Below, in pieces: positions 1,811-24,418 of a DNA stretch of 32,992 nt (positions are counted from its first letter, which is position 1; every line of letters begins with the position of its first letter). The stretch is taken from NCBI GenBank assembly GCA_900313345.1, contig OMQW01000053.1, positions 1-32,992 of the forward strand, given 5' to 3'. The position numbers and the translations under genes are program-made. The notes under the pieces were generated by a model. That model was not told where the DNA came from, made no database searches, and saw nothing but the letters and a program-made list of their open reading frames with translations. The stretch comes from an uncultured Eubacteriales bacterium (lineage in GTDB: Bacteria; Bacillota_I; Bacilli_A; RF39; UBA660).

Positions 1811-2743
1811 ATGATTAAAGTATTATTTATGGGTACACCATACTTTTCAACAAAAATACTAGAAAGTTTAATAAATAGTCAAGAAATAGAAGTAGTTGGT
1901 GTAGTAACAAAAAAAGATAGTGAACAAGGTAGAAAACGTATTTTAACAGAGTCTCCTGTTGCACTACTAGCAAAAGAAAATAATTTAAAAGTATTTAAAA
2001 TAGAAAAGTTTAAAGATGAAGTTGAAAATCTAAAAGCTTTAAATGCTGATTTAATAGTAACAGCAGCATATGGAAAAATACTTCCTGAATCAATTTTATC
2101 TATACCTAAATATGCATCAATTAATGTACATGCATCTTTATTACCGAAATATCGTGGAGCATCTCCAATAGAAGCATCTATAAAAAATGGTGATAAAGAA
2201 ACAGGTATAACTATTATGTATATGGATAAAGGAATGGATACAGGTAATATTATTAAAGAAGAAAAAGTAATAATAGAAGAAACAGATAATTTAACATCAC
2301 TTACAAAAAAATTAGCAGAACTTGGAAGTAACATGATAGTAGATAATATTAAAGAAATAGTAAATAATAAAAATGAAAGCATAAAACAAAATGATGAAGA
2401 AGCAACATATACTCATGTAATAACAAGAGAAGATGAACATCTTGATTTTAATAATAATGCTGAAGTAGTATTTAATAAAGTTAGAAGTCTAGCAGATGAA
2501 CCAGGAGCATATGTAAAACTAAATAATGAAATAGTAAAAATATATGAAGGCTATGTTTTAAAAGAAGAAAGTAATAAAAAAGTTGGAACTATTATAAAGC
2601 TTTTAAAGGATGGTATAGCAGTTAAAACAAAAGATTACTTATATGTAATAACTAAATTAAAGCCACAAGGCAAAAAAGTAATGGACGCAAAAAGTTATAT
2701 AAATGGTCTAAAAGAAGATATTGTAGGTGATATATATGAATAA
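1811..2743 (+). CDS. fmt: Methionyl-tRNA formyltransferase
   Basis: N-terminal FMGTP motif, HASLLPKYRGASPI formyltransferase motif and a C-terminal Fmt beta-barrel domain. The SD sequence AAGGAG is present and the synteny is conserved. Confidence 0.9.
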   Translation: MIKVLFMGTPYFSTKILESLINSQEIEVVGVVTKKDSEQGRKRILTESPVALLAKENNLKVFKIEKFKDEVENLKALNADLIVTAAYGKILPESILSIPKYASINVHASLLPKYRGASPIEASIKNGDKETGITIMYMDKGMDTGNIIKEEKVIIEETDNLTSLTKKLAELGSNMIVDNIKEIVNNKNESIKQNDEEATYTHVITREDEHLDFNNNAEVVFNKVRSLADEPGAYVKLNNEIVKIYEGYVLKEESNKKVGTIIKLLKDGIAVKTKDYLYVITKLKPQGKKVMDAKSYINGLKEDIVGDIYE

Positions 2744-3455
2744 AAAGGATAATATATTTAGTGTATTAGATGAAAACCCTGATTTAAAGAAGGTAGCATT
2801 CTTTATATTTTATCTAATATTTTTTATTGTAATGATACTAATGCTAAGAGGAACTAATAAAGCTCTTCCAAAAGAAAATACAAGATATAATACAGGATAT
2901 AATAATAGTTATACATTAGAAAGTATAAATACTAGAAATTATCACTTTAATATAATAGAAAATATTAATGGAAATGAAACTATTTATGATGGAGATAAAA
3001 ATGGTAATAAGATGTCTCTAATTAAAAGTGGAAATAAATCAGAAAATTATTATATAGAAAATAATGATTATTATTTAAGAGATGAAAATACACTTAGATA
3101 TAATAAAATAGATGGACAATTAGAATTTATTAAGTTTATAAATGAACAAGCTCTAAAAGAAATAATAACAAGATCTTCATATGAGTCATTTGAAGAATAT
3201 TTTGATAGCAAAAAGAATTCATATAAATATGAAATATCTACAACAACTCTAACAAAAACAATTGATGGAAGAAATATAGATCTGAGTGATTTACCAAATA
3301 AAATAGAAGTAACAGTAAAAGAAAATAAAATAGAAGAAATAGATTTAGATTTAACTAATTATTATAAGTTTAATGATAGTAATATAAATAAATATACTTT
3401 AAAAATAGTTTATTCTAAATATAATGAAATAGATGAAATAAAGGTAAATAAATAA
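2736..3455 (+). CDS. Hypothetical membrane-anchored protein with one N-terminal TM segment and an Asn/Tyr-rich extracytoplasmic domain
   Basis: TM segment VAFFIFYLIFFIVMILML. I prefer the ATG at 2736 (SD sequence GTAGGTGA 5 nt upstream, ATGAATAA overlap with the fmt stop) over the track GTG at 2727. It sits where rsmB normally lies. Confidence 0.55.
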   Translation: MNKKDNIFSVLDENPDLKKVAFFIFYLIFFIVMILMLRGTNKALPKENTRYNTGYNNSYTLESINTRNYHFNIIENINGNETIYDGDKNGNKMSLIKSGNKSENYYIENNDYYLRDENTLRYNKIDGQLEFIKFINEQALKEIITRSSYESFEEYFDSKKNSYKYEISTTTLTKTIDGRNIDLSDLPNKIEVTVKENKIEEIDLDLTNYYKFNDSNINKYTLKIVYSKYNEIDEIKVNK

Positions 3456-8526: not shown

Positions 8527-9420
8527 ATGAATAATGAAAGAGAAAATAGTGTAATAGAACCTAATATTAATGTAGTGCAACAAGAACCAGTTGTTAACGT
8601 AATACAACAAACTCCTGTAGTTCCAGAGCCTACCATTAATGTAGTGCCAGAAACTCCTGTAATTTCAGAACCTACTGTTAATGTAGTGCAACAAAGACAA
8701 GTAAATCAAGAACCAGTTGTTAATGTAATGCCTCAAACACCAGTAGTTCCAGAGCCTACTGTTAATGTAGTAAAACCATCGCCAGTAGTAAATCCTGTTA
8801 TTAATAATACTGAAGTTCAAAATCCTAATGTTGGAATACCAAGCGAAGAAGTAAAAGTAGAACCTCCAAAGGAAAATAATAACAATAATAATGAAGGTAA
8901 AGGAAAAACAATACTTCTAATATTATTTATGCTATTCGCAATAGTATTTGTTTTATTCTTACCAGAAATATCAAACTTTATTAATAATAAGAAAAACTTT
9001 GAATTTAATAGTGAAGTTAGTGATGGTACACTAAAATGTTTAAGAACATATGATAGTGATGCTAAAGAAACAAATTATGAATACTTCTTTAAATTTATTA
9101 ATAAAGGTGTAACTACAGGAACATATACAACTACATATGAAGATGAAGACAAACAAAATGTAATTGAAAAAAATAATAAGTGTAATGAAATAAAAGCAAT
9201 TTCAGATTCAATATCAGGTGTTGATGTTTCATGTAATTATACAGAAAACATTCAAACAACAATTCAAGAAAATAATTTTATGCAAATAAAATCTGGTAAG
9301 ATGTCTGCCTTTACTGAAGCTGGTGGGATTTATCCAGAATATAAATATAAAGATAATATATATAATATAGAAGCTAATCTAGTAAAAGCAGGTTATGATT
9401 GTAAAATAACTGCCAACTAG
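8527..9420 (+). CDS. Bitopic membrane protein: N-terminal Pro/Val/Asn repeat region, one TM segment, and a C-terminal ~145-aa domain with four Cys
   Basis: The SD sequence AAGAGG is present. Residues 11-92 carry the repeats and residues ~128-146 form the TM segment ILLILFMLFAIVFVLFL. The C-terminal domain has Cys residues at LKCLR, NKCNE, VSCNY and YDCKI. I recognise no family. Confidence 0.6.
   Translation: MNNERENSVIEPNINVVQQEPVVNVIQQTPVVPEPTINVVPETPVISEPTVNVVQQRQVNQEPVVNVMPQTPVVPEPTVNVVKPSPVVNPVINNTEVQNPNVGIPSEEVKVEPPKENNNNNNEGKGKTILLILFMLFAIVFVLFLPEISNFINNKKNFEFNSEVSDGTLKCLRTYDSDAKETNYEYFFKFINKGVTTGTYTTTYEDEDKQNVIEKNNKCNEIKAISDSISGVDVSCNYTENIQTTIQENNFMQIKSGKMSAFTEAGGIYPEYKYKDNIYNIEANLVKAGYDCKITAN
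8557..8802 (+). repeat. In-frame tandem coding repeats (EP-x-[IV]-NV-[VIM]-x-Q / TPV[VI][PS] units), including a ~126-bp higher-order duplication (8581-8706 versus 8707 onward)
   Basis: CAAGAACCAGTTGTTAA(C/T)GTAAT recurs at 8581 and 8707. CCAGAGCCTAC(C/T)(A/G)TTAATGTAGT recurs as well. At the peptide level, QEPVVNVIQQTPVVPEPTINVV matches QEPVVNVMPQTPVVPEPTVNVV. Confidence 0.75.
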
Positions 9421-9448: not shown

Positions 9449-9460
9449 CAACAATATTGA

Positions 9461-9500
9461 TACCTCCTCATAATCATGCTAGTATGAAGATGAGGAGGTA
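9461..9500 (+). promoter_or_regulatory. Perfect 11-bp stem-loop that pairs an anti-SD sequence with the SD sequence of the downstream 3D-domain gene
   Basis: TACCTCCTCAT (9461-9471) is the exact reverse complement of ATGAGGAGGTA (9490-9500), with an 18-nt loop between them. The GAGGAGG in the 3' arm is the only SD sequence for the ATG at 9508. Confidence 0.55.
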
Positions 9501-9507
9501 TTTGTTT

Positions 9508-10446
9508 ATGAAGAAGTTTATTTATACTTTAATATTTCTTCTATTATTAGTTTCATCAGTAATTCTTGTAAGAAGTAATAAAACTGTAAGCTATAAAGCA
9601 GATACTTCTACAAAAGACAAGATGATTAACACAACCGTATTACTAGATAGGAGTAATAAGAAAAAAGAAGAAAAAGAGGCTGAAGAAAAGGCCAAAGAGG
9701 AAGCCGAGAAAGAAGCAAAAGCTAAAGAGGAAGCTAGACAAAAAGAAATAGCAAGACTCGAAAAAATAGAAGAAGAAAAGAGAAAAGCTGCTGCTAAAAC
9801 AACTCAGGTAGTAAGGGAAACTGAGGTTGTAGGATCTCGTGCTTCCGGTTTAATAACCGATAATAACGTAAATCAAAAAGAAGAAAGTGTAACTCCACAA
9901 ATAGAAACGCCTAAAGAAATAAAAGTAGTAGCAAACAGTGAAAAAAGAGTATTTGATGGAGCTAAATTCTATGACAGATTAATGAGTTCTTATGGAACTG
10001 ATTGTTGTCGAGCTAATAATTATACTGATGAAGAAAAAGAAAGAGGACTTGCAGTATTAGGTCTTGGATTAACTGCAAGTGGATATCAATTTAAATATAA
10101 AGACATATGGTTCAATGCTGGAAGTTATGGTAATGTAAGAATGGTTGCAGCAGATCATGCTGGCCAAATTGACTTCCCTCTAGGAACAATAGTTAAGATA
10201 ACAGAAAAGATGGATGATGGTTCATACCAATCAATGAATGCAATTGTAATAGATCGTGGTGATAACAATATAGGACTAGACCCTAAGGAAAATGGAAGAA
10301 AAAGAAGAATCTTCGACTTAGTATCTGAAAATATGCTCGCTGCAGAATCATTTGGAGTACATAATCAAATAGATGTAGAAGTACTTCATACTGGTACTAA
10401 AGAAGATTTATATAACATAAGACATTATGGCCGTTTGGTGGGATAA
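9508..10446 (+). CDS. Secreted or membrane-anchored 3D-domain (MltA/YuiC-like double-psi beta-barrel) cell-wall hydrolase with a Lys/Glu-rich coiled-coil linker
   Basis: I prefer the ATG at 9508 (MKKFIYTLIFLLLLVSSVILV signal/anchor, SD sequence GAGGAGG) over the track TTG at 9457. The C-terminus has the GTIVKI...AIVIDRGDNNIG...RRIFDL pattern typical of 3D domains. A KE-rich segment spans aa ~50-95. Confidence 0.65.
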   Translation: MKKFIYTLIFLLLLVSSVILVRSNKTVSYKADTSTKDKMINTTVLLDRSNKKKEEKEAEEKAKEEAEKEAKAKEEARQKEIARLEKIEEEKRKAAAKTTQVVRETEVVGSRASGLITDNNVNQKEESVTPQIETPKEIKVVANSEKRVFDGAKFYDRLMSSYGTDCCRANNYTDEEKERGLAVLGLGLTASGYQFKYKDIWFNAGSYGNVRMVAADHAGQIDFPLGTIVKITEKMDDGSYQSMNAIVIDRGDNNIGLDPKENGRKRRIFDLVSENMLAAESFGVHNQIDVEVLHTGTKEDLYNIRHYGRLVG

Positions 10447-10450
10447 TATT

Positions 10451-11605
10451 ATGAAGTCGCATATGAAAAGAAATAAATTAATAATTGTAGTACTATTCGC
10501 TGCTTTTATGATTATAACAGTTTCTTTTTCATATACGATTTTATTGTATACAATGAAAGGTTATATTACTAATATAGTTACAACAAATGCCATTAATTTT
10601 ACATATCTAGAAGGAAATAATAATTTAACTATAGAAAATGCTATTCCAGTAAGTATGAAGTAGGAATGATAAATAATGATAATGTATTTTTATTTCAAGT
10701 AACTTATAATACAAAATTAAATGTAAATAGAACATACGAAGTAACAGCAGAAAAAGATGGAACATGTACACTATCAGATAAAGATATTAAACTTTATTTA
10801 GAAAAATGCACTGATAATAAAAATTTTGAAAAAGTAAGTAATCATCCAAACTATACACCATTAAGTGAAGATGATAGTTTTGGAGCAAAACAAAGTGAGA
10901 TGGTATTAGATATTCAAACTGTAAATGAACAAATAACCTACTACTATAAACTACTTATGTATTTAGATAATGATTATAGTGATAATTTACATGAAAGAGA
11001 GTATTAAATAAAAATAAATACATATGCTAAGGATATTGGTATTAAAAAACAAGAGAAAACTTATAATATAGGTGATAAAGTAAAGATAGATTTTGGTGAT
11101 GGTAAAGAAAATATTTTCTATGTTTTAGAAGATAAAGGAAAAACTTTAGATTTATTATATTATAGAAATATAACCGAATTTGGTAGTAGAAAAAACTATG
11201 ACACATGGTGATGCATTATCATACTTTTCAACAAATGAATATTTAGAATTTGCTAAAAGTTGGCAAGATAAAATAAATGCTATAAGATTACCAAGAGTTT
11301 CTCAAATAGCAAGTGCAGGCGGATTTGACAATTGGGATAATCTAAGTGGTTGATATGAATTTAAAAACAAAGTAAATACTAACTATTTATATAATTATTT
11401 ATCATCTTGTTATGACTATGGCTGTAGTAAAGAATTAGAAGGAGATAATGCAGCTTGGGGTTATTGATTAGAAGATATAGTTTCATCAAATAGCAATTAT
11501 TATATATTAACAGGAGCAGGAGGTATATCAGAAAATCTAGAATATTATGGATCATCTAATGGAGTAAGACCATTTATTAATATAAATAAAGACTTGCTGA
11601 ATTAA
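10451..11605 (+). pseudogene. Decayed first member of the three-copy membrane-anchored family, fused to a C-terminal lectin-like (DUF1566/Lcl-C-like) domain
   Basis: The track ORFs 10427-10663 and 10666-11007 align consecutively to the intact paralogue 11659-12405. They are joined by a frameshift at ~10650-10660. An in-frame TAA lies at 11005-11007, within Y*IKINTYAK (compare YFTIKIDVYGK). A second frameshift lies at the A6 run 11190-11195. The last segment is open to the TAA at 11603-11605 except for TGA codons at 11351-11353 and 11465-11467. Confidence 0.7.
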
Positions 11606-11658: not shown

Positions 11659-12405
11659 ATGGAAAAGAATGAAAAAAAGATTGAAGAAATAAATAGTAAA
11701 AATATATTTTTAGTAGTTATATTATTATTCTTATTAGTAGTATTAGTAATAGGTGTAACATACCAAATATATATGTATACAGATAAAGGAACAAATATAT
11801 TAAATAAAATATTTGGAGGAGATCAAGATATTTTTAAAAATGGATCTGTTACTATAGTTTATACTGAAGGAGAAAATAAAGTTAAAATAGAAAATGCTCT
11901 ACCTATGACAGATAGTGAAGGTATGAGTATTAGAGATAATAATGAAATCATGGATTTTAGTATAAGTGTTAATATAACAAAAAATAGTAATGTATCATAT
12001 CAGGTAGTAGCACAAAAAGATAAAGAATCAACTCTTCCAGATGAAGCAATAAAAATATATTTACAAAGAAGTATAGATAATACTAAATTTGATGAAGAAG
12101 TATTAAAACCAAAATTATTTAAAGGTGTTACTGAAGAAAATGATTATGGTGTTCCACTAGGAGACATGGTAATAGATGAAGTAACTACTAATAAATCAGT
12201 AACATATTATTATAGACTTCGTATGTGGTTAGATGAAAACTATTTAATAGATAATTCATATAAATATTTTACTATTAAAATAGATGTTTATGGTAAAGGT
12301 CAAAGAGTTAGAGATAATAATACTGAAAATACTAAAGAAGTAAAAGATGAAGCTAAAGAAGAAAAAGTAATACAAAGTGAAAATAAAGTAGAGGAAAGTA
12401 AATAA
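11659..12405 (+). CDS. Membrane-anchored beta-rich protein, paralogue 2 of an unrecognised family, with a Lys/Glu-rich tail
   Basis: The SD sequence AGAGGT is present, and the N-terminal TM segment is IFLVVILLFLLVVLVIGV. Blocks shared with its neighbours include Y-TEG-N-[KL]-I-N--P--D-EG, I[KN][IL]YL[QE][RK]..DN and TYYYRL[RK][MI]W. Confidence 0.65.
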   Translation: MEKNEKKIEEINSKNIFLVVILLFLLVVLVIGVTYQIYMYTDKGTNILNKIFGGDQDIFKNGSVTIVYTEGENKVKIENALPMTDSEGMSIRDNNEIMDFSISVNITKNSNVSYQVVAQKDKESTLPDEAIKIYLQRSIDNTKFDEEVLKPKLFKGVTEENDYGVPLGDMVIDEVTTNKSVTYYYRLRMWLDENYLIDNSYKYFTIKIDVYGKGQRVRDNNTENTKEVKDEAKEEKVIQSENKVEESK

Positions 12406-12995
12406 TGAAGCTAGAGAAATACGTAATTGTAGTTATTGAATTATTCTTACTAATTGTAATGACAATTAGTATTTCTTTTGCAGCCTTTGATAACATATTT
12501 TATAAAAGAAAAATAAATACAAAAGCAACTATAACGGAAATATATAATGAAGGTAGTAATAAATTAACTATAACAGACTCATATCCACTAAGTGATATAG
12601 AGGGAATAAATAGTAATAGAAGTGAAAATGTTTTAAACTTCACTCTGGATATTAATATGGATAAAAATCATTTTATAGAATACATCTTATATTTAACTAA
12701 AGGGTATAATTCTACTATAAATGATAAAGATGTAAATATTTATTTAGAAAAAAGCTTAGATAATATTAATTATTATAAAGTAATGGATATTAGTCCTTAT
12801 AAAACGAATAATATATTTGGGAACTTTAAGATAAATAAAAATAATATGATACTAGAAGATTCTAAAGAATATAGTAATAAAACTTATTATTATAGATTAA
12901 AGATATGGCCTAAATTAAATTCTTATAAAACAAATAAAATTAAATATTTTACTGTCTCAGTAAATATGAAAGCTAAAGATTATTTAAAATCATAA
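12405..12995 (+). CDS. Membrane-anchored beta-rich protein, paralogue 3 of the same family
   Basis: It is coupled to the previous gene by a TAATG overlap. The TM segment is YVIVVIELFLLIVMTISISF. The conserved blocks are the same (IYNEGSNKLTITDSYPLSDIEG, NIYLEKSLDN, TYYYRLKIW). Confidence 0.65.
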   Translation: MKLEKYVIVVIELFLLIVMTISISFAAFDNIFYKRKINTKATITEIYNEGSNKLTITDSYPLSDIEGINSNRSENVLNFTLDINMDKNHFIEYILYLTKGYNSTINDKDVNIYLEKSLDNINYYKVMDISPYKTNNIFGNFKINKNNMILEDSKEYSNKTYYYRLKIWPKLNSYKTNKIKYFTVSVNMKAKDYLKS

Positions 12996-17398: not shown

Positions 17399-17650
17399 AT
17401 GTATATGAAAGAAGAAATAATTAAAGAAATAGACCCTAGTCTAGAAAACTTAAACGTACATATAAGTGATGTTTATGTTGAAAATGATGAAGGAGTAGAT
17501 AACTTAAATATTGAAGTTGACTCTGATGAAATAATTGATGTTGAAAAAATTACTGAAGTATCAAGAATTATTAATAAGAAGATTGATACAATGAATATTC
17601 CACTAGAAGGATATATACTTGATGTACATTCAAAGGAAAAAGGAGAATAG
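17399..17650 (+). CDS. rimP: Short RimP-like ribosome maturation factor (N-terminal domain only)
   Basis: Its position directly upstream of nusA fits rimP. The acidic N-domain pattern ends in GYILDVHS, which corresponds to the Y-x-LEVSSPG region of RimP. It is only 83 aa (an alternative start lies at 17405), and the stop codon is 4 nt before the nusA start. Confidence 0.55.
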   Translation: MYMKEEIIKEIDPSLENLNVHISDVYVENDEGVDNLNIEVDSDEIIDVEKITEVSRIINKKIDTMNIPLEGYILDVHSKEKGE

Positions 17651-19157: not shown

Positions 19158-19169
19158 GAGGTGCTTAAC

Positions 19170-21290
19170 ATGATGAGTTTGTTAGATTATGCAAATGATG
19201 TAAATGTTGATGTAGAAAAAATAAAAGAATTATGTGATAAATTATCTATAAGCTATGGTGATGAAAACTATATGCTTAGTGATACTGAAATTACACTTCT
19301 AGATAATGCTGTAAATGAATTAGATACAGAAGAAGATGTAGTAGAAGTAGAAGATGAAGAAGTTTATTATATAGCAACTGAACTTGCAGAAAATACAAAC
19401 ATTGATTTAGATAATACTGAAAGTTTTACTAAAGTTAAATCTAAGTCTAAAAGACAAGCAGATGCTAAAAGTTCTAATTTTAAACAAGCAAGAAAAAAAA
19501 TTTATAAACATCGTGAAAAATTAGAAAGTAATGAAAAGAAACAAAACGAAGATGTAGTTATTTATAAAGAAGGAATGACTGTTGAAGAGTTAGCAGAAGC
19601 TTTAAATGATACAGCAGTTAATTTAATTAAAAAATTATTTGTATTAGGTATTATGGCAAATAAAAATCAAAGTGTTGATTATGATACAGCAGAATTATTA
19701 GTAACTGATTATAATAAAACGCTTAAAAAAGAAGAAACACAAGATATTTCAAATTTTGAAAACTTTGAAATAGAAGATGATCCAGATAGTCTAGAAGAAC
19801 GTCCACCAATAGTAACAATTATGGGACATGTTGACCATGGTAAAACAACACTTCTTGATTACATTAGAAATAGTCATATTGCTAATGGTGAAGCAGGTGG
19901 AATTACTCAAGCAATTGGTGCATATTCAGTAAACTATAAAGGTAAAGATATTACATTTATTGATACACCAGGACATGAAGCCTTTACAGAAATGCGTGCA
20001 AGAGGTGCAGCAGTAACAGATATAGTTATTATTATAGTAGCAGCAGATGATGGTGTAATGCCTCAAACACAAGAAGCAATTGACCATGCTAAAGCAGCAA
20101 AAGTACCAATAATAGTAGCAATCAATAAAATTGATAAACCTGATGCAAATCCTGATAAAGTATTAACACAACTTGCTGAAAATGATTTAACACCAGAAGA
20201 ATGGGGTGGAGATGTAATTGTTAATAAAATTTCCGCAAAAACTGGACTTGGAGTAGATGAATTATTAGATAGTATTTCCTTAGTTGCCGAAATGAATGAA
20301 TATAAAGCTAATAAAAAACGTTATGCAACAGGAGCAGTTATTGAATCTCGTCAAGATAAACATGTAGGTAGTGTAGTAAGTTTAATTATTCAAAATGGTA
20401 CACTACGTTTAGGAGATCCAATAGTAGTAGGTACTGTATTTGGTAAAGTAAGAACACTTAAAAATGATTTAGGCGAAAATATTGTAGAAGCAGGACCATC
20501 AACACCAGTTGAAGTAACAGGCTTAAATGCTGTTCCAAGTGCAGGAGATAAATTCATGGCATTTGAAACTGAAAAACAAGCTAAAGATATCGCTGAAGAA
20601 AGAAGCTTACGTGCTAAAGAAAAAGATTCAAATAAAAAAGGTATGACACTAGAAGAATTATTTGGAAACATTAAAGAAGGCTTAAAAAAAATTAATATTG
20701 TTTTAAAAGCTGATGTTAATGGTAGTGTAGAAGCATGTAAGAATTCGCTAGAAAAAATAAATGTTGAAGGTGTTAAACTTTCAGTTATTCGTGCAGGAGT
20801 TGGAGCAATCACTGAAAGTGATATTGTTTTAGCACAAGCATCTGATGCAATTGTAATTGGTTTTAATGTTAGAGCATCAGCAACTGTTGAAGCTTTTGCA
20901 AAAGAACATTCTGTTCAAATTAAAACATATGATATTATTTATAAACTAGTAGAAGCTATGGAAAGTGCTATGAAAGGTATGCTTGATAAAACATACTCAG
21001 AAAAAGTAACTGGTAAACTTGAAATTAGACAAATATTTAAATTCTCTAAAGTTGGTTTAATTGCAGGATGCCATGTTATAGAAGGAATAGTTAAATCTAA
21101 TTCTAATGCTAGATTAATTAGAGATAATATTGTTGTATATTATGGAAAGATTAAATCATTACAACATGAAAAAGATAGTGTTAAAGAAGTTAAGAAAGAT
21201 ATGGACTGTGGTTTAACACTAGAAGCATGCAATGATTATAAAGAAAATGATATCATTGAAGTATATGATTTAGTAGAAGACCAAATATAA
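19170..21290 (+). CDS. infB: Translation initiation factor IF-2
   Basis: I prefer the ATG at 19170 (SD sequence AGGAGG at 19156-19161). The GTPase motifs [20 protein letters not shown] and NKID are present, together with the C-terminal IF-2 domains. Confidence 0.95.
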
Positions 21291-21291
21291 G

Positions 21292-21320
21292 AGACTAATT
21301 TATAAAAATTAGTCTTTTTT
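21292..21320 (+). terminator. Rho-independent terminator after infB
   Basis: AGACTAATTT-ATAA-AAATTAGTCT forms a perfect 10-bp stem followed by TTTTTT. Confidence 0.8.
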
Positions 21321-21341
21321 GTAGTAATTTATGATAAATTA

Positions 21342-22001
21342 ATGATTAATAATGATTGTGATATTAATCAGTTTTATGACAATATAAGAGATCTAAAAAA
21401 ACTACTAAAAGAATTAAGAGATTTTAATAAATTTAGATATTTAATAGATGAAATAATAAAAAGATATAAAGATAATGGTAAAAATAAAGACTTATTTAAA
21501 AAATTATTAAAATTAGAAAATGAAAGAAATTCTCTAGAAAAAAATATAATGCCACATAAAACATTATTTGGAATTAAAGATAATACTTAAAATAAAGAAT
21601 TATTATTAAAACTAAATAATCATTTATTAAAAATGAATGATAAATATAATGAATTAATAAATGAATTATTTAATGACTATATATCAAAAATTTTAAATGA
21701 TACATCAACATACTTAGATGCAATTATAGCATTAGGATCAAATTATACATATCTAAATTTAGTATATAATTTAGTAGATAATGGAGATATTAAGATATGT
21801 GATTATAAATCTATAAGAAATTTAGCATATATAAATGAAGCTAATTTTACTAAAAATATAAATATGCTTTATGAAGGAAATATTAATGAATTAGAAAAGA
21901 ATGTTGATTTTATAATTACATGTAATAATTTTGAAAATAATAATATAAATTTTAAAAATTTAAAAACAGTTAATGATATAAATTCTATATTAAATAAATA
22001 G
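21342..22001 (+). pseudogene. Split, degenerate member of the SHOCT-like repeat family: track ORFs 21342-21590 and 21633-22001 are in one frame, separated only by the TAA at 21588-21590
   Basis: Both ORFs are in the same phase, with no other stop codon between them (…GIKDNT*NKELLLKLNNHLLKMNDKY…). The combined length of ~219 aa matches the neighbouring paralogues. NINMLYEGNINELEK and YLNLVYNLVDNGDIKICDY resemble the family repeat. Neither ATG has a convincing SD sequence. Confidence 0.4.
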
Positions 22002-22017
22002 AATATTAAGAGTGAAT

Positions 22018-22051
22018 AAGAAAAAACTACAAGTTTTTTCTTTTCTTTTTT
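22018..22051 (+). terminator. Rho-independent terminator
   Basis: AAGAAAAAAC-TACAA-GTTTTTTCTT forms the stem, followed by a T-rich run (TTCTTTTTT). Confidence 0.65.
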
Positions 22052-22060
22052 ATAAAATTA

Positions 22061-22069
22061 TGTTATAAT
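22061..22069 (+). promoter_or_regulatory. Extended -10 element TGTTATAAT for the three intact repeat-protein genes
   Basis: It was read directly and lies 27 nt upstream of the ATG at 22096. Confidence 0.45.
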
Positions 22070-22095
22070 ATGAAGTCCAACAAAGGAGAGATTAC

Positions 22096-22656
22096 ATGTA
22101 TACAAATATAGAAGATATATACTCATGTTATAGATTAGGACTAATATCTAAAGATAGTTTATTAAATAACAAAATAATAGAGAAAAAAACATTTATTGTA
22201 CAAGGCAAATTATATAGTCCTAAAGATGTTTTTGATATAAACGATATAAAACTAGAAGAATTAATAACACTTCATAATATGGGAAATATAAATAGAAAAG
22301 AATTAATAAAACTATATAATGATATAAAGAAAAATGATATATCTATTTATGAATATTATTTAGCAGCAGTTCAAGGTATTATCCCAATTGAAAAAGCATT
22401 AAAGAAAATTAATAAGAAATTAAAAGAAAAGAATAAATTATCTATAAAAGATACTCTTGCATTATCTAAATTAAGAATAATTGATATTAATAGACTTTTA
22501 TATAAATCTAAATTTTTAAGAAAAATTAATAGTGAAGATTTAACACCATCTGATTTAGTTTTCTTATCATCAAGTTTCATATTAAGTAATGAAGAAATAA
22601 ATGATAAAGTGCTAGTTTTAAAAAGTAACATGATTGACAAAAGAATAAAAAAGTAG
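22096..22656 (+). CDS. Soluble protein made of five SHOCT-like ~24-aa helical repeats (paralogue C)
   Basis: A strong SD sequence, AAAGGAGAG, is present. The repeats are NIEDIYSCYRLGLISKDSLL, KLEELITLHNMGNINRKELI, SIYEYYLAAVQGIIPIEKAL, SIKDTLALSKLRIIDINRLL and TPSDLVFLSSSFILSNEEI. Confidence 0.7.
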   Translation: MYTNIEDIYSCYRLGLISKDSLLNNKIIEKKTFIVQGKLYSPKDVFDINDIKLEELITLHNMGNINRKELIKLYNDIKKNDISIYEYYLAAVQGIIPIEKALKKINKKLKEKNKLSIKDTLALSKLRIIDINRLLYKSKFLRKINSEDLTPSDLVFLSSSFILSNEEINDKVLVLKSNMIDKRIKK

Positions 22657-22690
22657 TATAATATAGTGACTTTTAAGGGGGAACAAATAA

Positions 22691-23314
22691 ATGAATAATG
22701 GGAAGAATAAAAACGTCAAATATCCAGGTTATAATCTTTCAATATATGATTTACAATACTTACAAGGTAAAGGATTTTTAACAATACCTGAGTATATAAA
22801 TTATAAAACTATTACAAGAAAAGTAGAATGCGTTAATAATTTAAAGAAAGATCATTATTTTATAGGTAAAGATAAGAAATATAATGAAATAACTACATCT
22901 GATTTATGTGCATTATACAGATCAGGATTAGTTAGTAAAAATATGATAATAGAATATATGATAGCATTTAATACAACTAAGAATATTAGAGATATTGAAT
23001 ATGCATTTAATTATGGATTAATTAGTTCTAAAGATGTTTTTAATAAATTAGATTTATTTGCAGTAGAATATAAAAATGATATTAAAAAATTAACAGTAAA
23101 AGATTTAGTATCTTTATATAAACTAGAAATGATTGAAGAAGAAGATATTAAAGAAGCTAAAATAAAGAAAAATAGTTTAACTATAGAAGACTATATAGCA
23201 CTAAATAGAATAGGCTTATATTCTGATGAAGAATTATTATCAAAGGCATATGATAGTATTAAAGAAGTAGACGAAACATATAAAGATAGTAATATCTTAT
23301 TTAAATTAAAATAA
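22691..23314 (+). CDS. Soluble protein made of five SHOCT-like repeats (paralogue D)
   Basis: The SD sequence AAGGGGGA is present. The repeats are SIYDLQYLQGKGFLTIPEY, TTSDLCALYRSGLVSKNMI, NIRDIEYAFNYGLISSKDVF, TVKDLVSLYKLEMIEEEDI and TIEDYIALNRIGLYSDEELL. Confidence 0.7.
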   Translation: MNNGKNKNVKYPGYNLSIYDLQYLQGKGFLTIPEYINYKTITRKVECVNNLKKDHYFIGKDKKYNEITTSDLCALYRSGLVSKNMIIEYMIAFNTTKNIRDIEYAFNYGLISSKDVFNKLDLFAVEYKNDIKKLTVKDLVSLYKLEMIEEEDIKEAKIKKNSLTIEDYIALNRIGLYSDEELLSKAYDSIKEVDETYKDSNILFKLK

Positions 23315-23328
23315 CAAGGAGAATTATT

Positions 23329-24018
23329 ATGAATTTTTATGGAGTAAGAAACGAAGATAAAATATTTCCAACTGCAGTAGTTGATGAAAATAAGAAAAAA
23401 GTACTAAATTATAATTATTATGTAGGATTTGATATGCCTTTATATATATTAAATTATTTACATAAATCAGGTTTAATAAATGAATATGAGTTAAATGATA
23501 ATGCAACATTAAATAGAAAAATCTATGTAGTAAAAAATATGAAAAAAGATTTTTATGATTCGATTGAAAATACTAAGCATGTAAATACTACTTTAGGTGA
23601 TCTTGCAGTATTAAAAGAGTTAAACAAAATAACAATGGCAGATGCTAAAGAGTATGCAAAAAGACATGTTGACTTTACAAATATAACAGATTATTATGAA
23701 GCTTATAAAATGAATATAATAACTGAAGAAGAAGCATTACTAAATATTCAAAGTAAAATTAAAATTAATAAAAATAATTTAAACAACTTAAATATTAATG
23801 ATTTAGCAACTTTATGTGAAATGAAACTAATAGATAAAAAATCACTAATTAAAAAGACAAAAGTTAAAAATATTGAAATTAATGATTTAGAAGACGCTGT
23901 TGGTTATCATAGATTAGGTATTATATCAACAACTGAATTATTAAATCAATCACTAAGTACAATAACTGAAATGACAAGATATGAATATAGTGGAAAAAAC
24001 TTTACATTAAAAATTTAA
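23329..24018 (+). CDS. Soluble protein made of five SHOCT-like repeats (paralogue E)
   Basis: The SD sequence AAGGAG is present. The repeats are MPLYILNYLHKSGLINEYEL, TLGDLAVLKELNKITMADAKEY, NITDYYEAYKMNIITEEEAL, NINDLATLCEMKLIDKKSLI and EINDLEDAVGYHRLGIISTTELL. It shares the linker K[VI]..V.N[LM]KKD.Y with paralogue D. Confidence 0.7.
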   Translation: MNFYGVRNEDKIFPTAVVDENKKKVLNYNYYVGFDMPLYILNYLHKSGLINEYELNDNATLNRKIYVVKNMKKDFYDSIENTKHVNTTLGDLAVLKELNKITMADAKEYAKRHVDFTNITDYYEAYKMNIITEEEALLNIQSKIKINKNNLNNLNINDLATLCEMKLIDKKSLIKKTKVKNIEINDLEDAVGYHRLGIISTTELLNQSLSTITEMTRYEYSGKNFTLKI

Positions 24019-24043
24019 TTGATAGTCATCTATCAATTTTTTT
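24017..24043 (+). terminator. Weak AT-rich intrinsic terminator closing the repeat-protein cassette
   Basis: AATTGATAG-TCAT-CTATCAATT is followed by a T run. Confidence 0.45.
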
Positions 24044-24053
24044 ATTAATAGGG

Positions 24054-24059
24054 TATAAT
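24054..24059 (+). promoter_or_regulatory. Candidate -10 hexamer TATAAT for rbfA
   Basis: GGGTATAAT lies 18 nt upstream of the rbfA ATG. The -35 element is not convincing. Confidence 0.3.
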
Positions 24060-24076: not shown

Positions 24077-24418
24077 ATGGCAAACAATATTAGAATTAAA
24101 AGATTAAATAACACATATATGGAAGAACTAAGCAGAATATTAATGGAAGAAGTAAAAGATCAAAAAGCTAAGGAAGCAATTATAACTGGAGTAGATGTAA
24201 CTAATGATTTAAGTTATGCAAAGGTATATTTTACTATTTATAATAGAGAAAATAAAAAAGAAGTTTTGGAAGCATTAAATACTGCAGAAGGTTTTATAAG
24301 AAGATGTCTTGCAGATAGAATAGAAATTAGAAATACACCAGAACTTAGATTTATTTATGATGAATCAGAAGAATATGGTAAACATATAGATGAAATAATA
24401 GAAAATCTAAATAAATAA
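24077..24418 (+). CDS. rbfA: Ribosome-binding factor A
   Basis: A KH-like RbfA pattern is present (ITGVDVTNDLSYAKVYF, IRNTPELRFIYDES). Length is 113 aa. Confidence 0.9.
   Translation: MANNIRIKRLNNTYMEELSRILMEEVKDQKAKEAIITGVDVTNDLSYAKVYFTIYNRENKKEVLEALNTAEGFIRRCLADRIEIRNTPELRFIYDESEEYGKHIDEIIENLNK

Follow-up and report, generated by a model that had tools for sequence, protein, structure and literature searches.

In this work we focused on a cassette of three tandem genes, hereafter C, D and E, which lies between infB and rbfA in the genome of an uncultured RF39-type Bacilli bacterium. The window analysed is the whole DNA stretch of 32,992 nucleotides (nt) of contig OMQW01000053.1 (assembly GCA_900313345.1). 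An initial annotation, made from the sequence letters without database searches, had described the cassette as an insertion between these two genes that carries tandem repeat-protein paralogues, and the present analysis supports this description and shows the insertion to be lineage-specific. The gene family is chromosomal and was met in a single species only, and each of its proteins is built from a short repeat, which we compared with the SHOCT domain (PF09851).

Gene content of the infB-rbfA interval

The window consists of housekeeping genes in a chromosomal stretch, every one of them on the + strand, and the cassette is located within the rimP-nusA-ylxR-infB-rbfA cluster. The infB stop (21290) and the rbfA start (24077) are 2786 nt apart, which confirms the separation of about 2.7 kb first reported, both genes being named by Pfam. 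The boundary genes and the three genes between them are the following, with lengths in amino acids (aa).

19161 to 21290, + strand: infB (IF-2), upstream boundary gene; Pfam matches to GTP_EFTU, IF-2 and IF2_N
22096 to 22656, + strand: paralogue C, 186 aa, with five hairpin repeats of SHOCT-like type; Shine-Dalgarno sequence AAAGGAGAG; based on BLASTP, repeat hidden Markov models (HMMs) and AlphaFold2
22691 to 23314, + strand: paralogue D, 207 aa, five repeats; Shine-Dalgarno sequence AAGGGGGA; based on BLASTP and repeat HMMs
23329 to 24018, + strand: paralogue E, 229 aa, five repeats preceded by some 35 N-terminal aa that are modelled with low confidence; Shine-Dalgarno sequence AAGGAGA; based on AlphaFold2
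24077 to 24418, + strand: rbfA, downstream boundary gene; Pfam match to RBFA, E 2.6e-33

The three intact genes of 186, 207 and 229 aa listed in the initial annotation are thus all present, and each is preceded by an AGGAG-type Shine-Dalgarno site, that of gene E (AAGGAGA) lying 14 nt after the stop of gene D. D and E are 27% identical (BLASTP E 1e-14 to 1e-24), and C is aligned with D and E in several registers (E 1e-5 to 1e-11). By these alignments C, D and E are true paralogues.

The longest stop-free run of the cassette extends over 237 codons, compared with 76 ± 15 codons in shuffled sequences (maximum 141). In-frame codon usage matches that of the host genes, and the G+C content (GC) declines from codon position 1 to 3, with a third-position value (GC3) of 10%, as in infB and rbfA. 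We judged the genes to be real because of this long stop-free run, the host-like codon usage, the Shine-Dalgarno sites and the conservation of repeats and spacing at about 27% identity. By codon usage and GC3 the composition of the DNA is also native and not that of a recent foreign import. The isoelectric points (pI 7.7-9.5) are ordinary for this genome. No transmembrane or hydrophobic segment was found in C, D or E, as had been stated before.

Eleven metagenome contigs that were read are 99.9% identical to the window, with gene order unchanged, and the cassette is therefore a stable chromosomal locus. The exact protein E was found on at least 22 contigs from independent metagenomes.

Internal repeats

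Each protein contains five repeat units, which start at the following positions.

Protein C: aa 3, 51, 82, 115 and 149 (nt 22102, 22246, 22339, 22438 and 22540)
Protein D: aa 16, 67, 97, 134 and 163 (nt 22736, 22889, 22979, 23090 and 23177)
Protein E: aa 36, 87, 117, 154 and 182 (nt 23434, 23587, 23677, 23788 and 23872)

The initial annotation had proposed five copies of a 24-aa motif per protein. The number of copies stands, whereas the repeat length had to be corrected: the period is 28-37 aa, of which about 22 aa form the core. The distances from unit to unit are common to C, D and E (48-51, 30-31, 33-37 and 28-34 aa), and the five-unit array is therefore older than the gene duplications.

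Repeat HMMs built with one paralogue left out recovered four to five units in that third protein, with scores of up to 24 bits, versus a maximum of 4.3 bits over about 9000 residues of other window proteins. Since this result could mirror paralogy alone, a test leaving out one repeat position at a time was added. With the resulting HMMs, 9 of the 15 omitted units still reached scores of 12-26 bits, versus about 1 ± 3 bits for shuffled sequences. The internal repetition is genuine, since models made from the other four positions still detect the left-out units.

The column profile of the 15 repeats reads [LI]-[TSN]-I-x-D-L-x-x-L-x-x-x-G-[LI]-I-[ST]-x-x-E-L-L. Leucine 8, leucine 11, isoleucine 17 and leucine 22 are dominant, the glycine is present in 9/15 units and a glutamate or aspartate at column 21 in 10/15, and a single repeat carries a 2-aa insertion. 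Conserved across the units are the helix N-caps [ST]-x-x-[DE], which occur twice per unit, the turn glycine and the core hydrophobic residues; exposed positions are variable. These structural residues have been retained in all 15 repeats at about 73% sequence divergence.

Between repeats 1 and 2 lies a conserved non-repeat spacer of about 20 aa with the pattern RKxxxVxNxKKDxY (23512-23556, corresponding to aa 62-76 of protein E, and its equivalents in C and D). Four of the family's 24 invariant columns fall within this spacer, which may represent a functional loop.

Database searches

A word-indexed search of 5.8 billion proteins returned only C, D and E themselves, and a three-paralogue profile that was run exhaustively with HMMER against 1.84 billion representatives likewise found no other protein. 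The five open reading frames (ORFs) of the interval gave no match above threshold in Pfam, NCBIfam, PHROGs or PADLOC, which bears out the earlier remark that no described family could be recognised. The repeat profile had no match among the PDB sequences, tblastn found none in phage and plasmid records, and scans of viral contigs and JGI metagenome contigs revealed no relative. By the range of these searches the C/D/E family is an orphan.

Comparison with the SHOCT domain

SHOCT was defined as a domain of about 30 aa with two predicted amphipathic helices, a strongly conserved glycine and glutamate and five conserved hydrophobic positions, all at constant distances without insertions or deletions (PMC3581485). 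Larger proteins usually carry it once, no more than 50 aa away from their C-terminus, and proteins with two, three, four or eight copies have been catalogued (PMC3581485). Binding to proteins or nucleic acid has been proposed, self-oligomerisation being experimentally unsupported (PMC3581485), and for SHOCT-like domains a role in anchoring or assembling complexes at the inner face of the membrane has been suggested (PMC11237479).

A peptide that Eberhardt et al. had expressed (PMC3581485, Table S1) served as the SHOCT seed. A first HMM, made from 42 near-identical matches, was too narrow and was replaced by a set of 16 diverse domains from plasmid records annotated as SHOCT-containing. Comparison of the 15-repeat profile with this 16-domain profile by hhalign gave a probability of 88.4% and an E-value of 2.8e-6, the SHOCT alignment being narrow (effective number of sequences, Neff, 3.3) and seeded from one peptide. 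The alignment is gapless and places columns 4-26 on columns 4-26. Repeat residues L8, L11, G15, I/L17, S/T18, E21 and L22 fall on invariant SHOCT positions, and the invariant L8, L11, G15, L17, E21 and F22 of SHOCT are each aligned 1:1 with a repeat column. The glycine, the glutamate and the hydrophobic residues that match in this way are precisely the positions described as conserved in PMC3581485.

The score of 22.9 compares with 6.2 ± 1.4 after column permutation and with 6.6 ± 1.7 (maximum 15.2) after permutations that preserve the hydrophobic/polar pattern, none of 200 such permutations reaching 22.9. The reversed repeat profile scored 6.8. Sub-profiles from single paralogues scored 18.5-25.6 and those from single repeat positions 15.4-24.4, with the register unchanged in both cases. 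As a control, helix-turn-helix (HTH) repeats resembling sigma-70 region 4 gave an hhalign probability of 4.3%. When a synthetic protein of five consensus repeats was scanned against 24,736 Pfam models, SHOCT ranked first with 24.7 bits (threshold 27), again in the same register.

The likenesses between the two are several. Each is built on units of about 30 aa that comprise two amphipathic helices, and the turn glycine, the helix 2 start [ST]-x-x-E and the five hydrophobic positions occur in the same register without insertions or deletions. Both are cytosolic and devoid of cysteine or histidine metal sites, and proteins with several copies are known in both. There are also differences. The natural C, D and E sequences stay below the Pfam threshold, a near-invariant aspartate at column 7 is found in the C/D/E repeats only, and the K26 and terminal LL of SHOCT are missing from them. 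Five units make up essentially the whole C/D/E protein and are predicted to pack as one domain, whereas a typical SHOCT is a single C-terminal appendage. Finally, C, D and E are three tandem paralogues confined to one species.

The SHOCT resemblance suggested by the initial annotation was thus recovered in part: it emerged in comparisons of profile with profile, in register and through the controls, but not in searches with natural sequences at the Pfam cut-off. On this evidence the repeat appears SHOCT-like at the profile level only, and formal membership is not established. The same annotation regarded a whole protein of SHOCT repeats as a departure from the known architecture. Such an arrangement is rare, yet this view was overstated: an array of five SHOCT-like units is not unprecedented, because the multi-copy SHOCT proteins had already been described.

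Predicted structure

In the AlphaFold2 models, obtained for C and E, the succession helix(9)-loop(5)-helix(10-14) occurs five times per protein. Mean predicted local distance difference test values (pLDDT) were 79 for C and 72 for E, and the predicted template modelling score (pTM) was 0.73 for each. Foldseek comparison of these two models, which had been suggested together with structure prediction, found no significant structural analogue in PDB or BFVD. The nearest, non-significant neighbours are generic arrays of tetratricopeptide (TPR) and pentatricopeptide (PPR) repeats, with template modelling (TM) scores of 0.24-0.43. C, D and E share with these arrays, such as NlpI and designed PPRs, the succession of antiparallel helix pairs; they differ in their period (about 30 aa versus 34-35 aa) and motif, in the absence of a Pfam TPR or PPR match and in Foldseek E-values of at least 0.3. 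Membership in the TPR/PPR alpha-solenoids was rejected, the best E-values being 0.35 and 0.32.

The infB-rbfA junction in related genomes

We compared 35 related loci (L011-L045) with an infB identity of at least 55%, of which 31 had a readable junction. The infB gene is 58-74% identical to that of uncultured Bacilli and of metagenome-assembled genomes of the "Mycoplasma sp. CAG:877" type. The GTDB genus CAG-877 belongs to the order RF39, family CAG-611 (PMC8035907), and the bacterium is accordingly a gut organism of the RF39 type.

In 22 of the 31 readable junctions the gap between infB and rbfA is shorter than 75 bp. The separation of the two genes is thus not routine in the clade, which answers in favour of an insertion the question raised by the initial annotation. 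No relative of C, D or E was found in the 35 loci, and the idea that the cassette is a conserved component of the nusA-infB-rbfA operon was rejected on these two grounds. Five related loci have a gap of about 400 bp with an orphan of about 120 aa, and four of these orphans, without Pfam match, are mutually homologous (BLASTP E 1e-5 to 1e-19 between members).

L015, 10091 to 10519: orphan of about 120 aa
L016, 10145 to 10522: orphan of about 120 aa
L017, 10148 to 10534: orphan of about 120 aa
L037, 4158 to 4514: orphan of about 120 aa

Other occupants of the slot are a DUF3137 and LemA pair (L022, 10213-11676), a 1197-aa antisense protein with many Sigma70_r4/GerE-like HTH repeats (L042, 4104-7694, - strand) and further orphans (L031 and L044). 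Homology of C, D and E to the HTH-repeat protein was rejected, as the repeat HMM finds nothing in it and the hhalign probability is the 4.3% given above. In the closest relative (L028, infB 74% identical) the place of rbfA is taken, behind a terminator that follows infB, by a gene with a pilin-like hydrophobic N-terminus (9566-9941); this contig ends just past the junction, and 74% is the highest infB identity among the relatives found. The junction looks like a permissive, recurrently occupied insertion slot and a hot spot for gene gain in the clade.

Small genes between infB and rbfA, among them ylxP (DUF503), are found in Firmicutes, as in the Bacillus subtilis operon. Like ylxP, C, D and E lie between infB and rbfA of the nusA-infB-rbfA cluster. 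They have no sequence relation to it and no Pfam DUF503 match, and the cassette is not conserved across the clade.

Terminators and promoter-like sites

Hairpins were evaluated by RNA folding energy (dG) and by z-score against shuffled sequences, and promoter elements were read from the sequence. The following features were recorded.

21288 to 21322, + strand: intrinsic terminator after infB, 13-bp AT-rich stem followed by TTTTTT; dG -12.7 kcal/mol, z -5.07, 0/200 shuffled sequences as stable
22007 to 22052, + strand: terminator with hairpin and T-run, 3' of an interrupted ORF described below; dG -12.6 kcal/mol, z -2.79
22061 to 22069, + strand: putative extended -10 element TGtTATAAT ahead of gene C (186 aa), with a poor -35 region
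22634 to 22662, + strand: promoter-like site TTGACA-17-TATAAT, perfect consensus, in the 3' end of gene C and 29 nt upstream of gene D
24017 to 24045, + strand: terminator with hairpin (24017-24038) and T-run, overlapping the gene E stop codon; dG -7.9 kcal/mol, z -3.08
24054 to 24059, + strand: putative -10 element TATAAT upstream of rbfA

The three terminators first proposed, after infB, inside the interval and at its end, fold as claimed, with z-scores of -5.1, -2.8 and -3.1. A consensus terminator scanner called none of these AT-rich hairpins because it demands at least three G-C pairs. The TGnTATAAT element was likewise located at 22061, where it had been placed, and rbfA has a separate -10 element as stated before. 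The site at 22634-22662, absent from the initial annotation, is the sole 12/12 match to the sigma-70 consensus in the 9 kb scanned, and it suggests an internal promoter for genes D and E. Rfam and tRNA scans revealed no RNA element in the cassette.

Proposed origin and role of C, D and E

We propose that a two-helix unit of about 30 aa came to be present five times within an ancestral gene, which was then duplicated twice in tandem, giving rise to C, D and E. The unit would be a divergent SHOCT-like bihelical hairpin, with the capping box [ST]-x-x-D at the start of helix 1, a turn glycine and the [ST]-x-x-E start of helix 2; in our reading it functions in the manner of a SHOCT-type bihelical unit, from which it probably descends. 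According to the models, the five hairpins may pack into one soluble all-alpha repeat domain. Because the conserved residues are structural (caps, turn glycine and core) and the exposed ones vary, the proteins are most likely non-enzymatic binding or scaffold modules, whose partners would be other proteins or the inner face of the membrane. The three diverged paralogues possibly recognise different partners or each other. We infer that the genes are transcribed on their own, from the extended -10 element before C and the consensus promoter before D to the terminator after E, while the terminator after infB would insulate them from the nusA-infB operon. Their location would be a permissive slot, with no role in translation. 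To this reading as a whole, a one-species family of SHOCT-like hairpin-repeat proteins that serve as independently transcribed binding or scaffold modules in a permissive slot, we assign a probability of roughly 55%.

Several observations weigh against it. The best natural score with the Pfam SHOCT model is 10.5 bits (E 0.54), for one repeat of protein E, the gathering threshold being 27 bits, and none of the 15 repeats matches Pfam SHOCT when scanned singly. With the SHOCT HMMs built in this analysis C, D and E score no better than background, and as single sequences they rank 3rd, 8th and 39th of 220 against the SHOCT profile. The profile match itself depends on a narrow, single-seed SHOCT alignment, and a spurious FeoB_N match trails SHOCT by a mere 0.8 bits when the consensus is scanned. 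A short amphipathic hairpin with a glycine turn could also arise by convergence. AlphaFold2 was run on an alignment of three sequences only, and Foldseek searches of the two models against PDB and BFVD gave no E-value below 0.3 (best 0.32-0.66). Within the species, polymorphisms in C and D are 3 nonsynonymous to 1 synonymous, too few to speak for constraint, the contigs being 99.9% identical and their single-nucleotide differences too rare for a ratio of nonsynonymous to synonymous substitution rates (dN/dS).

A serious alternative, which we consider less likely, is that the repeat is unrelated to SHOCT and is an independent, perhaps de novo, hairpin repeat produced by internal duplication in an AT-rich lineage, the similarity being due to convergence on a general arrangement of two capping boxes on either side of a glycine turn. 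The lack of homologues in the collections of 5.8e9 and 1.84e9 proteins, the failure of the sequence-to-profile tests, the aspartate at column 7 that SHOCT lacks, the K26 and C-terminal LL that the repeat lacks, and the abundance of orphan ORFs in this genome, with seven other Pfam-less ORFs in the window, are all consistent with such an origin. It accounts poorly for a gapless profile-profile match in exact register that survives pattern-preserving permutation, that recurs from five independent repeat positions and that is accompanied by a first rank of SHOCT among 24,736 Pfam models.

The position of the cassette inside the rimP-nusA-ylxR-infB-rbfA cluster might indicate accessory factors of translation initiation or 30S maturation that are co-regulated through this position, and RNA-binding PPR repeats are among the top, non-significant Foldseek matches. 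However, terminators insulate the cassette on both sides, it is absent from all 35 related loci, and the proteins have no nucleic-acid-binding signature and an unremarkable pI for this genome. The variable occupants of the slot in relatives, which are unrelated genes, argue further against a tie to ribosome biogenesis, and with 22 of 31 junctions adjacent we found no evidence for the link that had been suggested at first. We therefore consider such a role improbable. A bolder version, in which C, D and E would be stand-alone SHOCT-like solenoids that originated within the lineage, the first in which SHOCT hairpins make up a folded domain by themselves, and would owe their position to a function as species-specific modulators of translation start-up that bind IF2, RbfA or the immature 30S subunit, is if anything a shade less plausible.

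The initial annotation had also considered a selfish gene family. It is very unlikely that a mobile or selfish element brought the cassette into a highly expressed locus as its cargo, or that a defence or anti-defence island landed there. Slot occupants do vary between species, as in genomic islets, and the GC of the cassette lies a little below that of the flanking genes (18-21% versus 25-32%), but there is no integrase, transposase or recombinase, no flanking direct or inverted repeat, no PADLOC or PHROG match and no match to phage, plasmid or viral contigs; codon usage and GC3 are identical to those of host genes, and the locus is invariant across metagenomes. Finally, we hardly credit that C, D and E are non-functional leftovers no longer expressed: the neighbouring 82/122-aa frame is already broken and the ratio of nonsynonymous to synonymous changes in C and D is not below the neutral expectation, but in DNA rich in stop codons three long ORFs have stayed open, neither their Shine-Dalgarno sites nor the promoters are damaged, and the structural residues are kept across all the diverged repeats.

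Under the reading of C, D and E as SHOCT-like scaffold modules, the cassette is a highly divergent form of a known type of module, confined to one uncultured species, and a modest curiosity. To our knowledge, SHOCT is widespread, functionally unexplained and absent from model organisms. If the relationship is true, a small soluble protein of five units would be convenient for solving a SHOCT structure, and C, D and E could be used for testing the hypotheses of binding, oligomerisation and membrane association. The infB-rbfA junction, at which new genes have settled repeatedly in RF39 bacteria, is useful for studying gene birth in reduced, AT-rich gut genomes. Beyond these, no physiological or practical consequence is evident so far.

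An interrupted reading frame upstream of gene C

The interval between infB and gene C contains a further feature, obtained by straight translation.

21342 to 22001, + strand: frame of 219 codons broken by one TAA (21588-21590), giving ORFs of 82 aa (21342-21590) and 122 aa (21633-22001)

This frame was certainly coding, judging from its native codon usage and from its 219 codons, in DNA where a stop would be expected about every eighth codon. A Shine-Dalgarno site is missing upstream of both ATGs. On the metagenome contigs the frame has 5 nonsynonymous and 0 synonymous polymorphisms, compared with 4 and 7 in the flanking housekeeping genes of the same contigs. The initial annotation had taken the two ORFs for a split fourth copy of the family. 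This was not supported: BLASTP, the repeat HMMs, hhalign and the SHOCT profile detected no similarity to C, D and E, to the repeat profile or to SHOCT, and a fourth paralogue was rejected with an hhalign probability of 0.3% for the joined ORFs (A82+B122) against the family and repeat profiles. Among 5.8e9 proteins the two ORFs matched only themselves. The frame is probably a separate, unrelated and decaying orphan gene, recently inactivated, with its own terminator.

Neighbouring genes

Upstream of the cassette the gene order is the C-terminal part of priA, fmt, rlmN, a PP2C gene, a PASTA kinase gene, rsgA, rpe, tex, dut and a gene for an AAA protein, followed by rimP, nusA, ylxR and infB. After the cassette come rbfA and genes for an alpha/beta hydrolase, a Mur ligase, ddl and a P-type ATPase, then tRNAs. 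The GC of the window ranges from 18 to 32%, the cassette (18-21%) lying below its flanking genes (25-32%).

Seven more ORFs of the window have native codon usage and no Pfam match at E ≤ 1e-4 (840-1778, 2727-3455, 8527-9420, 9457-10446, 10666-11007, 11659-12405 and 12405-12995). This genome has many orphan or fast-evolving genes. The ORF of rimP (17399-17650) has only 83 aa and matches the N-terminal domain of RimP only; its C-terminal domain seems to be absent, and there is an overlap with the start listed for nusA.

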